From: Cupriavidus necator | GTDB lineage: Bacteria; Pseudomonadota; Gammaproteobacteria; Burkholderiales; Burkholderiaceae | Length of the DNA stretch: 32,000 nt | Direction of reading: 5' to 3' | Assembly (NCBI RefSeq): GCF_016127575.1 | Contig: NZ_CP066019.1 | Location: 2,250,001 to 2,282,000 of the forward strand | Shown here: positions 23,988 through 24,641 of the stretch, piece after piece | Position numbering within the stretch: the stretch's first letter is position 1 | Layout: every line of letters starts with the position of its first letter | Program-made: the position numbers and the translations under genes | Notes under the pieces: model-generated | The model's input: the letters and a program-made list of their open reading frames with translations, nothing else | What the model was told of the DNA's origin: nothing | Database searches by the model: none

Positions 23988-24641
23988 TCACAACATGCCG
24001 CGCCGGATGGCAATGGCGGCAAGCTCCACGTCGTTCTCGGCGCCGATCTTGCGCATGAGGCTCTGCTTTTGCGTACTGATCGTCTTGACGGTCCGGCCGG
24101 TGCGCATGGCGATCCCGGTCACGGACATGCCCGACAGGTAGAGGCGCAGCACTTCGCTTTCACGCCTGGTCAGCAGCTCCGCCCAATCGCCGTCCGGCGG
24201 ACCGCTGCAGGGCCTGCCCCAGATCAGCGTGCAAGCGGTTTCCGATACGGAAGCCAGCCCCAGGTATGCCATCCAGACCGCTTTCATGATCTCGTCGACA
24301 CCGTCCTTGGCTGTCACGACATTGCGGCAGCCGTCCTTGAGCAACTGCAGCACGGCGGCACGGTCGACGACGTTGGCGATCGCGACCACGCGCTGCCCGC
24401 CCAGCTCGGCGAGCCGCGTGCCAATGCGCGCATAGCCGGAAGGCTCGCGGTCTTTGGTGTCCCACAGCGGGTAACGCAGTGTCACGACATCACACGAGCC
24501 TTGCTGCAGCGCTTGCACCAGGCTCGGTTCGTCGCCCGCCACGCCAGCCAGCTCGATGCAGGCGCTGGCCGCGAGCCGCCGGCCCAGCAGGCGCCGCATG
24601 ACAGGTTGCGAGTCCGCGATGATCACCCGGATTTTTTCCAT
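23988..24641 (-). CDS. NarL/LuxR-family regulator with a degenerate (pseudo-)receiver domain
   Basis: ATG at 24641. The C-terminal HTH is intact: LTRRESEVLRLYLSGMSVTGIAMRTGRTVKTISTQKQSLMRKIG. The receiver aligns with the two paralogs but has IIADSQP instead of ADDHP, DVVTLRYPLW instead of DV(V/I)(I/V)TDY(H/S)MP (acceptor Asp replaced by Leu) and VVAIAN instead of V(L/M)TM. The conserved Lys is kept (TAKDG). Confidence 0.85.
   Translation of the reverse strand: MEKIRVIIADSQPVMRRLLGRRLAASACIELAGVAGDEPSLVQALQQGSCDVVTLRYPLWDTKDREPSGYARIGTRLAELGGQRVVAIANVVDRAAVLQLLKDGCRNVVTAKDGVDEIMKAVWMAYLGLASVSETACTLIWGRPCSGPPDGDWAELLTRRESEVLRLYLSGMSVTGIAMRTGRTVKTISTQKQSLMRKIGAENDVELAAIAIRRGML

Follow-up and report, generated by a model that had tools for sequence, protein, structure and literature searches.

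A fimbrial cassette of Cupriavidus necator encodes, between a canonical RcsB-like response regulator and one of two complete phosphorelay kinases, an RcsB-like transcription factor whose receiver-like domain keeps only one of the five catalytic residues and lacks, among the others, the acceptor aspartate. The new element reported here is a set of RcsB-box-like palindromes, which occupy fixed positions in 13 Cupriavidus loci. On balance, we favour the view that the protein is a phosphorylation-independent co-regulator, which would regulate its own gene and act with the neighbouring regulator at the fimbrial promoter, most economically as a mixed dimer, the heterodimer being the step that we infer. 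All coordinates are positions in the window, the 32,000-nt stretch of C. necator NZ_CP066019.1 (2,250,001-2,282,000) that was analysed. The genes concerned are as follows.

23988..24641, minus strand: pseudo-receiver (aspartate-less) RcsB-like regulator, 217 aa (open reading frame, Pfam, AlphaFold2, Foldseek, dN/dS).
24879..25520, minus strand: canonical RcsB-like response regulator, 213 aa, with the residues D-D-D-T-K (Pfam Response_reg 72.6 bits, plus GerE; best NCBIfam match RcsB, 155.6 bits).
20580..23900, minus strand: unorthodox sensor kinase 1 (HisKA, HATPase, REC, Hpt), true start MKRLM at 23900.
25655..28984, minus strand: unorthodox sensor kinase 2 (HisKA, HATPase, REC, Hpt), 35% identical to kinase 1.
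29911..31989, minus strand: fimbrial usher, 5' end cut by the window edge (Pfam Usher E 3e-168), from the chaperone-usher operon that heads the cassette.

The layout described in an earlier note on this DNA was recovered in full: an intact reading frame preceded by its own Shine-Dalgarno-like stretch (AAGG/GGAG), a 237-nt spacer upstream (24642-24878), a gap of 87 nt to kinase 1 (23901-23987), and two canonical paralogs in the window, at 24879-25520 (minus strand) and 16255-16920 (plus strand). Some orthologs are annotated as proteins of 223-257 aa, and a start codon further upstream was considered and ruled out; the window has ACG where those sequences have ATG, and in locus L003 the MEK start is preceded, four codons earlier, by a TGA in the same frame. 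The genome annotation currently labels the gene 'response regulator transcription factor'. The protein comprises a receiver-like domain (residues 1-126), helix alpha6 and a linker (127-154) and a LuxR/GerE helix-turn-helix (HTH; 155-217). The HTH has indeed been kept, as PF00196 (GerE) scores 44.4 bits against a cutoff of 23.5 over residues 156-211, which places the protein in the NarL/FixJ output family. The receiver model PF00072, in turn, reaches 15 bits against a gathering threshold of 30.2 and covers residues 6-55 only, so the protein falls outside the canonical phospho-accepting receivers; none of the 15 ortholog clusters gives a PF00072 match. The best-matching NCBIfam model is the RcsB equivalog NF008098, at 57.9 bits against a cutoff of 235, a score far enough below the cutoff for the protein to be called RcsB-like and not RcsB; the two canonical paralogs, at 155.6 and 149.4 bits, likewise stay below it. 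Matches to the NCBIfam BglJ model are limited to the HTH.

At the catalytic positions the protein reads D10-S11-R56-A89-A111, where its relatives have D-D-D-T-K. The codons concerned are these.

24609..24614, minus strand: D10 and S11, the acidic pair; Asp remains at the first position, and Ser (in some orthologs Pro) stands at the second.
24474..24476, minus strand: Arg56, in the acceptor Asp column; invariant in necator/taiwanensis-type orthologs.
24375..24377, minus strand: Ala89, in the switch Thr/Ser column; invariant throughout the aspartate-less clade.
24309..24311, minus strand: Ala111, in the conserved Lys column; the following K112 is not conserved.

The loss of the acceptor Asp, of one acidic Asp and of the switch Thr, which the earlier note had described, is upheld, as are the underlying changes of ADDHP to ADSQP (Ser11 in place of the second acidic Asp) and of V(L/M)TM to AIAN (Ala89 in place of the switch Thr); its total of three losses is too low, since four of the five residues are gone. 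Substitutions in the acceptor and Lys columns had been misassigned. Leu55, previously put in the acceptor column, aligns with the Thr that precedes the Asp, and the column itself holds Arg56, a placement on which three-way MAFFT, 22-sequence, 206-sequence and profile-profile alignments agree (the last with probability 100% and E 1.3e-46) and with which strand beta3 of the AlphaFold2 model (residues 52-57) is consistent. Nor is the conserved Lys retained, its column being Ala111 in the 22-sequence and profile-profile alignments; at the adjacent Lys112 of the window protein, orthologs have Arg, Leu or His. An alternative acceptor Asp, as might be read from a phmmer-RcsB alignment that is gapped in beta3, was rejected, as the larger and profile-profile alignments are gapless there and put Arg56 in the column. 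No Asp near the site is conserved as a replacement: neither D61 nor D64 is conserved, and D51, where beta3 starts, is a structural Asp common to the whole family. The D-S-R-A-A signature is fixed across 15 protein clusters and the genomes of 8 further Cupriavidus species; in more distant homologs the acceptor column holds Val (C. metallidurans type) or Gly (a metagenomic homolog).

The fold nonetheless appears to have been kept. The AlphaFold2 model (pLDDT 83.6) predicts elements beta1 to alpha5 in order, i.e. a (beta-alpha)5 fold, followed by the HTH, and Foldseek with this model returned RcsB as the best match (E 9e-14) and the DesR receiver at 2.2 Å across 127 columns. Pseudo-receivers are defined as lacking at least one of the five catalytic residues, and aspartate-less receivers as lacking the acceptor Asp (PMC12632262, PMC4395418); with its predicted fold preserved and four residues gone, the acceptor among them, the protein belongs to both. 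With the substitutions S11, R56, A89 and A111, transfer of a phosphoryl group to its canonical site is very unlikely, from kinase 1 as from kinase 2, and the core of the earlier reading, an atypical NarL/RcsB-like regulator that is not phosphorylatable at this site, therefore stands. Arg56, next to Asp10, which has been kept, may occupy what was the pocket for metal and phosphate and neutralise it.

Purifying selection (dN/dS 0.27 overall, 0.10 in the HTH) and conserved synteny agree with the previous assumption that the gene is functional and not decaying. Constraint is uneven along the protein. It is strongest in the HTH (51 of its 63 residues do not vary; conservation 0.96), and helix alpha1 is conserved to the same degree (0.97), in contrast to the beta3-alpha3 loop at the dead active site (0.57). 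The receiver-like part has a dN/dS of 0.35 and evolves about six times faster than the receiver of the canonical regulator (24879-25520, dN/dS 0.06), a point against our preferred reading. Among the matches listed, orthologs measure 217-257 aa and align across the full query, with the exception of one truncated cluster (P0062, 99 aa), which diverges past about residue 65, may be a frameshift and likewise counts against that reading. The recognition helix reads KTISTQK, compared with KTISSQK in RcsB and KTISAQK in the neighbouring regulator. Its DNA-contacting Lys (K186) is Asn or Thr in the wider clade, which again weakens the preferred reading; together with the Val and Gly of the acceptor column, this implies that neither Arg56 nor K186 is essential for the function of the clade. 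In a neighbour-joining tree the aspartate-less proteins form one group and the cassette regulators another, and the tree does not place the origin of the aspartate-less clade. This clade was found only in Cupriavidus, aside from the metagenomic homolog, which is 39% identical. The nearest canonical relatives share at most 36% identity, all have D-D-D-T-K and, where looked up, lie in unrelated contexts; neither a close canonical ancestor nor a homolog in the same context was found outside Cupriavidus.

The cassette has a constant order in the clade, namely fimA, chaperone, usher, kinase 2, canonical regulator, pseudo-receiver gene and kinase 1, and its synteny holds in five annotated Cupriavidus loci (L001-L005) with differing flanks. 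The 39%-identical homologs, from C. metallidurans and a metagenome, sit in the same kind of cassette with an additional EAL gene; no EAL gene was found in the cassette of the window, where the reading frames 3' of kinase 1 have no family matches. Across five species neither kinase shows any change in the H-box His, in the Asp and Lys of REC or in the Hpt His motif, so that each retains all phosphorelay residues, and only one of the cassette regulators has an acceptor Asp. Gene tables (L001-L005, L008, L009), domains and phosphorelay residues thus describe a fimbrial module of two kinases and one regulator, in which the canonical regulator is likely to be the phospho-acceptor of both kinases and likely to be the partner or competitor of the pseudo-receiver protein. 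Most strains have a truncated fimbrial adhesin gene or none at all, which argues against our preferred reading in that fimbriae may not be the sole or main target.

The non-coding elements of the window are listed here; fimA and its box lie outside the window.

24639..24724, minus strand: conserved non-coding block just before the start codon of the pseudo-receiver gene (five-species spacer alignment); contains the TCAG-type box and the SD-like AAGG.
24708..24721, minus strand: RcsB-box-like palindrome TCAGGCTTGGCTGA, C/C flavour (TCAG...CTGA), centred 73 nt 5' of the pseudo-receiver ATG.
25644..25657, minus strand: perfect palindrome TAAGGAATTCCTTA, A/A flavour, beginning at the kinase 2 stop, about 130 nt 5' of the canonical regulator gene.
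20580..20593, minus strand: box TAAGGCATGCCTGA, the fourth, of hybrid flavour; it overlaps the kinase 1 stop and the codons just before it, and 5 of the 13 loci have it.

The spacer measures 232-270 nt in the five species and only its proximal 85-100 nt or so align well; the in-frame TGA of L003 shows that this block is non-coding. It holds a putative, weak -35/-10-like pair (TTTCGA-17-CATCCT). A scan of the spacer 5' of the pseudo-receiver gene gave no sigma-54 or strong sigma-70 promoter, and a terminator-like hairpin after the canonical regulator gene was all that it returned. The C/C box recurs at an identical offset in 13 of 13 Cupriavidus loci, with a single central C-to-T change in L003, and a TAAG...CTTA (A/A) box occupies the canonical-regulator position in all 13 as well. 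In 10 of 11 loci a hybrid TAAG...CTGA (A/C) box precedes fimA, by about 160 nt; in the genome of the window strain it reads TAAGGCTTGCCTGA. The fourth box may be conserved merely through the coding sequence. Boxes number 3-4 per 20-kb locus where about 0.4 would be expected, their offsets are constant, and the 14-mer AGGCTTGSCTGATT occurs exactly twice per locus, 5' of fimA and 5' of the pseudo-receiver gene. The enterobacterial RcsB box is TN(G/A)GAN4TC(T/C)NA (PMC7913699), and the Cupriavidus boxes fit its 14-bp 5-N4-5 format with one changed base per half-site. Two observations run counter to our preferred reading. The positions that define the flavours, 2 and 13, are N in the RcsB box and may tune the affinity for one protein rather than discriminate between two, and the fimA box is the symmetric TAAG...CTTA in a close relative (L011) and in a distant cassette (L009).

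The idea that the pseudo-receiver protein shares or competes for DNA sites with its neighbour, or pairs with it, is consistent with the near-identical recognition helices (KTIS-x-QK) and with the palindromes 5' of fimA and of both regulator genes. From these sequence features we propose the following mechanism. Both kinases would converge on the canonical regulator, and the pseudo-receiver protein would be a phosphorylation-independent DNA-binding partner, whose amount, and not its modification state, carries the information. It would bind the TCAG...CTGA palindrome in its own promoter region, leading to autoregulation, the canonical regulator would have the TAAG...CTTA palindrome as its own, and the two proteins would jointly occupy the hybrid TAAG...CTGA box 5' of fimA. 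The most economical form of such joint occupancy would be a mixed dimer formed through the alpha1/alpha5 face of the receivers, where helix alpha1 is as conserved as the HTH. A stricter version, which we put forward tentatively and consider rather less likely than not to hold in full, is a hard-wired pair with split half-sites, in which the canonical regulator reads TAAG and the pseudo-receiver protein TCAG, the homodimers autoregulate through their own palindromes and only the mixed dimer reads the fimA hybrid; the dead receiver would thereby create a coincidence detector for phosphorylated regulator and accumulated pseudo-regulator. It is doubtful, at a much lower level of probability, that dimerisation is switched by a ligand, with c-di-GMP as the candidate, as might be suggested by the clade-invariant Trp141-Gly142 at the end of alpha6 and the EAL genes of the distant cassettes.

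The same boxes could also serve a cascade without any heterodimer, an explanation that we regard as a serious, if improbable, competitor. Phosphorylated canonical regulator would bind all boxes, with affinity falling from A/A through the A/C of fimA to C/C, and the pseudo-receiver protein would arise late as a constitutively active homodimer with its own, possibly wider, regulon, on the model of SecR as an expression-controlled amplifier. It would account for boxes that differ solely at N positions of the RcsB box, for the presence of a box 5' of the pseudo-receiver gene and for the symmetric fimA boxes of L011 and L009, and SecR itself, RcsB-like and aspartate-less, is a constitutive homodimer on its own promoter (PMC13199381). 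Yet affinity tuning has no obvious need of C/C and A/A flavours that are kept in 13 of 13 loci while the spacer around them is not alignable, nor does the cascade explain why, even in homologs of 39% identity, the pseudo-receiver gene has kept its place beside those of the canonical regulator and of the kinases. An anti-activator, which would occupy the same boxes or form dead heterodimers and so dampen or reset activation of the fimbrial operon, in the antagonist role of the Pseudomonas REC-EAL proteins RocR and PvrR, is unlikely. The protein and the canonical regulator have nearly the same recognition helix, related two-kinase fimbrial modules do include an antagonist (PMC3842833), and the C. 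necator-type cassette is without the EAL gene that distant cassettes have alongside the pseudo-receiver gene; this co-occurrence in L008 and L009, though, excludes a simple replacement, and the sign of regulation is not readable from sequence.

More remote from our preferred reading are two explanations in which DNA binding is secondary or absent. That the receiver-like domain still binds kinase 1, through the Hpt or DHp domain of the latter, modulating or sequestering it as a connector or decoy, we consider quite improbable; the idea has been discussed for CmrT (PMC12632262), receivers dock kinases and Hpt domains mainly through helix alpha1, which hardly varies here, and the gene is tightly and conservedly linked to kinase 1, 87 nt downstream, with which it is probably co-transcribed. 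A vestigial DNA-binding function is at odds with the HTH as the most constrained region, however, and the alpha1/alpha5 dimer interface of the NarL family explains the conservation of alpha1 equally well. Least probable is a functionless, decaying duplicate. The relaxed constraint of the receiver-like part (0.35 versus 0.06), the possible frameshift in P0062 and a dN/dS of 0.54 between the window strain and its closest relative would fit decay, but the gene is intact, full-length and syntenic in every annotated species locus, the full-length signature recurs in 8 further species genomes, the HTH retains a dN/dS of 0.10, a conserved promoter block with its box lies upstream, and the clade predates the split of necator-type and metallidurans-type cassettes.

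RcsB pairs with non-phosphorylatable LuxR-HTH partners (RcsA, BglJ, GadE, MatA) at asymmetric boxes. The Cupriavidus arrangement would resemble these in joining an RcsB-type regulator to a non-phosphorylatable partner and differs in that this putative partner has a full receiver-like fold and RcsB itself as its best model. Pseudo-receiver regulators of the SecR, WhiI and CmrT types are already known, and the Cupriavidus gene joins this class rather than founding a new system. Like the protein described here, SecR belongs to the RcsB clade of NarL/FixJ regulators and has a (beta-alpha)5 receiver-like domain without the acceptor Asp; it binds DNA independently of phosphorylation, its own promoter included, and Arg residues have been proposed as charge compensation in its dead pocket (PMC13199381). 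In SecR1 these are R32 and R81, at the positions of RcsB D11 and S58, whereas the Cupriavidus Arg sits in the acceptor column itself. SecR, compared here by description only, is mainly alphaproteobacterial and an orphan without cognate kinase, encoded beside serine-cycle genes; the Cupriavidus protein, encoded in a fimbrial cassette between two unorthodox kinases and with a canonical paralog, has neither the serine-cycle linkage nor the orphan status of that subfamily. In the BldM-WhiI pair of Streptomyces, likewise atypical NarL-family regulators, a partner with a degenerate pocket alters DNA specificity by heterodimerisation, and a homodimer palindrome is set against a hybrid heterodimer site that shares one half-site, which is the pattern of the A/A, C/C and A/C boxes (PMC4125116). 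BldM and WhiI are both orphans, and the acceptor Asp is still present in WhiI, while in Cupriavidus the partner is canonical and kinase-linked, the pseudo-receiver protein has its own palindrome and the heterodimer is a proposal. The CmrR-CmrT-CmrS locus of Clostridioides difficile similarly combines a kinase gene with genes for a canonical regulator and for a pseudo-receiver regulator from the family of the latter (PMC12548384); CmrR binds upstream of the operon, and both homo- and heterodimers have been detected in the Cmr system (PMC12548384; PMC12632262). It differs in belonging to the OmpR family, in a Firmicutes host, with one kinase and phase variation, as opposed to the NarL/RcsB family, two unorthodox kinases and chaperone-usher linkage.

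By gene layout, close counterparts are PvrS/PvrR-RcsC/RcsB (cupD) and RocS1/RocA1/RocR (cupC) of P. aeruginosa and CblS/CblT/CblR of Burkholderia cenocepacia, in which a chaperone-usher operon is flanked by two kinases, hybrid or unorthodox, with a single RcsB/NarL-type activator as their common target, with RcsB-type boxes in the fimbrial promoter and an extra modulator encoded in the module (PMC3842833); fimbrial control in Cupriavidus is, for its part, read from the boxes alone. The extra modulator of these systems is a REC-EAL phosphodiesterase or is absent, compared with an aspartate-less RcsB-like DNA-binding protein in Cupriavidus, and the literature considered on the Pvr, Roc and Cbl systems does not describe a pseudo-receiver HTH component. 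The VpsT/CsgD-type regulators share the receiver-like domain with a LuxR HTH and the independence from phosphorylation (Foldseek VpsT E 3.7e-7), and the EAL gene of the distant cassettes adds to the likeness. The VpsT motif W[F/L/M][T/S]R is missing, as had been noted before, the closest stretches being WMAY (123-126, with a W that is not conserved) and IWGR (140-143); W141-G142, invariant in the clade and located where alpha6 ends, comes without a consistently placed Arg in the wider clade. A search of the literature on the locus (H16_B207-209) and on Cupriavidus fimbrial regulation found nothing relevant; BfmSR of B. thailandensis is a different system.

Pseudo-receivers make up several percent of bacterial receiver domains, and how they are switched on and off is largely obscure (PMC12632262). 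The present cassette offers a compact case that is amenable to genetics in the H16 lineage of C. necator, a model organism, as about 13 kb bring together a pseudo-receiver and its canonical paralog with two complete phosphorelay kinases and with three candidate operators, each of a distinct and conserved flavour. The pattern of the boxes sharpens the vague suggestion that the protein may heterodimerise or compete into concrete predictions. If the hybrid-box model is true, it would extend the heterodimer logic of BldM-WhiI and RcsB-RcsA to a kinase-linked system, and the Roc/Cbl/Pvr class of fimbrial control modules would gain a modulator of a new type. Should the model fail, the protein would still be a clean phosphorylation-independent RcsB-like factor, useful for genome annotation.

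The pseudo-receiver gene and its two canonical paralogs lie in the window as follows.

23988-24641 (-): pseudo-receiver gene, an intact ORF of 217 aa
24879-25520 (-): canonical regulator of the cassette, full receiver and GerE matches
16255-16920 (+): orphan canonical regulator, full receiver and GerE matches

The earlier note had recognised both canonical paralogs, the intact ORF and the retained LuxR helix-turn-helix (HTH), and its spacers of 237 nt to the upstream regulator gene and 87 nt to kinase 1 are both correct. In Pfam searches the LuxR/GerE HTH spans residues 156-211 (44.4 bits; cutoff 23.5), and the PF00072 receiver model matches just residues 6-55 (15 bits; cutoff 30.2). 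The real start of kinase 1 is MKRLM at 23900. The longer N-termini annotated for some pseudo-receiver orthologs were rejected, as the window carries ACG at their ATG; in one species an in-frame TGA four codons 5' of the MEK start also rules them out.

Residues were assigned from three-way, 22-sequence and 206-sequence alignments and from a profile-profile alignment of the clade against its canonical relatives (probability 100%, E 1.3e-46), all four of which run without a gap through beta3. The acidic pair, acceptor, switch and Lys positions read D10-S11-R56-A89-A111, against a canonical D-D-D-T/S-K present in 154 of the 206 sequences. Two details of the earlier reading must be corrected: the acceptor column holds Arg56 in all alignments and not Leu, which is residue 55, and the conserved Lys is not retained, since Ala111 occupies its column; the next residue, Lys112, is replaced by Arg, Leu or His in orthologous proteins. 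Judged from the alignments, four of the five catalytic residues are missing, so that the protein lacks those required for phosphorylation at the canonical site, and no conserved substitute Asp for the acceptor was found on alignment with its relatives. The AlphaFold2 model (pLDDT 83.6) has a complete (beta-alpha)5 order, with the signature residues at or just past the C-terminal ends of beta1, beta3, beta4 and beta5. The top Foldseek matches are full-length RcsB structures (E 9e-14), and the DesR receiver superposes over 127 columns at 2.2 Å. Under the definitions in PMC12632262 and PMC4395418 the protein counts as an aspartate-less pseudo-receiver. Where the acceptor or the Thr is replaced, Glu and Ala respectively are common (PMC12632262); because Glu is the common acceptor replacement, Arg is unusual, though it introduces no new principle. 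The acceptor Asp is also missing from ~17 other relatives in the 206-sequence alignment, which have Glu, Gly, Asn or Gln instead.

A word-indexed search returned 15 clusters at 74-100% identity, none with a PF00072 match and all of those with organism names from Cupriavidus, below which identity falls to ~34% and to canonical RcsB-like regulators. An exhaustive representative search added just two intermediate relatives at 39% identity, from C. metallidurans (S-D-V-A-A) and a metagenome (D-H-G-A-S). In a scan limited to a single genome for each species, 8 more Cupriavidus species proved to have the D-S-R-A-A protein, and all matches at <=36% identity were D-D-D-T-K. At 90% identity the window protein clusters with C. 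necator CAJ96868.1; the latter is annotated as 'Response regulator-like LuxR-type HTH DNA-binding protein', so its peculiarity was recognised at that stage without being investigated. The clade appears to be uncharacterised and has so far been found only in Cupriavidus and related metagenome sequences.

A decaying duplicate would be one explanation for such a protein, and one truncated 99-aa cluster (P0062), diverging past ~residue 65, may be a frameshift; the data disfavour this explanation. Pairwise dN/dS across five species is 0.27 for the whole gene, 0.35 for its receiver-like part and 0.10 for the HTH, compared with 0.06 for the canonical regulator, 0.22 for kinase 1 and 0.25 for kinase 2; selection is purifying, though relaxed, and the DNA-binding domain is retained and constrained. 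Helix alpha1 matches the HTH in conservation (0.97 and 0.96), and within the receiver-like domain the beta3-alpha3 loop by the dead active site is the least conserved (0.57).

The gene is a fixed partner of the canonical RcsB-like regulator and of two complete phosphorelay kinases. Five annotated Cupriavidus loci share the order fimA, chaperone, usher, (adhesin), kinase 2, canonical regulator, pseudo-receiver gene, kinase 1, with flanks that differ in every species. Around the 39%-identical homologs this same module is rearranged: the aspartate-less gene and a canonical regulator are accompanied by two kinases, a chaperone-usher cluster and an EAL gene that stands alone. A neighbour-joining tree groups the aspartate-less proteins into one clade and the cassette regulators into a second, shorter-branched one; together with the distant rearranged modules, this indicates that the pair is older than the split of cassette types. 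Kinases 1 and 2 share 35% identity and the unorthodox architecture HisKA, HATPase, REC, Hpt; in all five species each retains the H-box His, the Asp and Lys of its receiver and the His motif of its Hpt domain. NCBIfam gives RcsC as the best model for both kinases and RcsB for each of the three regulators, with every score under the equivalog cutoff. EAL-domain genes without a receiver domain adjoin the distant homologs in the C. metallidurans-type (L008, 14405-15367) and metagenomic (L009, 10630-11502) cassettes and are absent from the C. necator-type one, a possible sign of a c-di-GMP connection within part of the clade. The putative adhesin/minor-subunit gene between usher and kinase 2 (28985-29910) looks truncated or frameshifted, with a 169-aa ORF at 29332-29841 (-), a weak Fimbrial match and a C-terminal remnant in another frame; it encodes 355 aa in locus L003, and none is called there in the other four annotated loci (L001, L002, L004, L005). 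The tip component of the fimbrial operon thus seems to be decaying in most strains.

The pseudo-receiver gene has its own conserved upstream region, conservation across species being limited to the proximal ~85-100 nt, which contains a 14-bp pseudo-palindrome, TCAGGCTTGGCTGA, at 24708-24721. Each of four loci contains two copies, and no more, of the 14-mer AGGCTTGSCTGATT, one at this site 5' of the pseudo-receiver gene and the other ~160 nt upstream of fimA. A degenerate search found 3-4 sites per 20-kb locus against ~0.4 expected from shuffles, at identical offsets across 13 Cupriavidus loci, in flavours set by palindrome positions 2 and 13.

25644-25657: A/A box (TAAG...CTTA) at the kinase 2 stop codon, ~130 nt upstream of the canonical regulator; 13/13 loci, perfect TAAGGAATTCCTTA in the window
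24708-24721: C/C box (TCAG...CTGA) upstream of the pseudo-receiver gene; 13/13 loci
upstream of fimA: hybrid A/C box TAAGGCTTGCCTGA; 10/11 loci
20580-20593 (-): hybrid box TAAGGCATGCCTGA overlapping the last codons (LRHA) and stop of kinase 1; 5/13 loci

The last may be an operator for a downstream gene or a coding coincidence. In the distant L009 cassette, TAAGGCTTGCCTTA precedes fimA and TAAGGATTGGCTTA precedes the aspartate-less gene. The boxes of the 13 loci fit the RcsB box format, TN(G/A)GAN4TC(T/C)NA (PMC7913699), with one base changed per half-site, and the recognition helices are near-identical (KTISTQK in the pseudo-receiver protein, KTISAQK in its neighbour, KTISSQK in RcsB). The box flavours and their fixed offsets appear to be a new observation.

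Other spacer elements were also noted. A terminator-like GC-rich hairpin followed by TTGCATTT (24836-24857, -), directly 3' of the canonical regulator gene and conserved in the closest relative (L002) only, argues for the pseudo-receiver gene and kinase 1 forming a transcription unit of their own. Between these two genes lies a 9-bp perfect inverted repeat, CTGTCCGGA-CGC-TCCGGACAG (23926-23946, -), without a T-run and for the most part preserved in the spacers of orthologous loci. Two conserved hairpins, neither with a U-run, separate kinase 2 from the canonical regulator at 25580-25596 and 25624-25638 (-): GTCTTCTCGGAAGAC, with a 6-bp stem and 3-nt loop, and CCGGCATTGAATGCCGG, with a 7-bp stem and compensatory changes elsewhere (CCGGTA...TACCGG in L003 and L004). 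These hairpins may affect RNA processing or stability, or be bound by proteins.

The remaining content of the window appears typical for a Cupriavidus secondary chromosome, and the orthologous loci lie on records labelled chromosome 2.

3260-7249 (-): 1329-aa DUF748/YhdP-like protein
8914-10062 (-): PHB-depolymerase-type esterase
10054-11022 (+): Crp-family regulator
11053-13287 (-): DUF2950-DUF3300 pair

A 418-aa ORF at 19090-20346 (+), with no Pfam or NCBIfam match, lies in a stretch of reduced GC3 (0.69 against ~0.85 in neighbouring genes); missing from the post-kinase 1 position in other Cupriavidus loci, it is probably a strain-specific acquired gene. The orphan regulator at 16255-16920 (D-D-D-T-K) has a LysR gene upstream, an MFS transporter gene downstream and probable orthologs in C. 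basilensis-type genomes (L040-L043); no cassette-type RcsB-like box was found upstream of it, and it is a possible additional phospho-acceptor for kinases 1 and 2.

We propose that both kinases feed the single canonical regulator, and that the aspartate-less protein would be controlled by its level, autoregulating at the C/C palindrome as a candidate site and acting jointly with the canonical regulator at the hybrid box of fimA, in the simplest form by pairing with it across the alpha1/alpha5 face. A neutralised pocket may result from Arg56 beside the retained Asp10; Arg residues have been proposed to play such a role in SecR (PMC13199381). In a rival plain cascade, the phosphorylated regulator would bind every box with graded affinity; the flavour-defining positions are 'N' in the RcsB box and the fimA boxes are symmetric in L009 and in the close relative L011, which tempers the split-flavour and hybrid-box models. 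Alternatively, the protein could act as an anti-activator, or serve kinase 1 as a connector or decoy. Further caveats to the proposed model are the degraded adhesin gene in most strains and the lack of conservation of K186 and R56 across the wider clade.

The proposed cooperation has the same pattern as BldM-WhiI, with a homodimer palindrome and a hybrid site (PMC4125116), and matches models discussed for CmrR/CmrT (PMC12548384; PMC12632262); CmrRST is also a precedent for a canonical regulator and a pseudo-regulator within one operon (PMC12548384). Two kinases and one regulator in a fimbrial setting recall CblS/CblT/CblR, RocS1/S2-RocA1 and PvrS/RcsC-RcsB (PMC3842833), but the Cupriavidus module has an extra part, the aspartate-less DNA-binding protein. 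Pseudo-receiver NarL/RcsB-like regulators, aspartate-less and other, are already known (SecR, WhiI, VpsT/CsgD-like proteins); distinctive for this clade are the Arg at the acceptor and the setting inside a Roc/Cbl/Pvr-like fimbrial module, where conservation of the box flavours allows homodimer, heterodimer and competition models to be tested directly.
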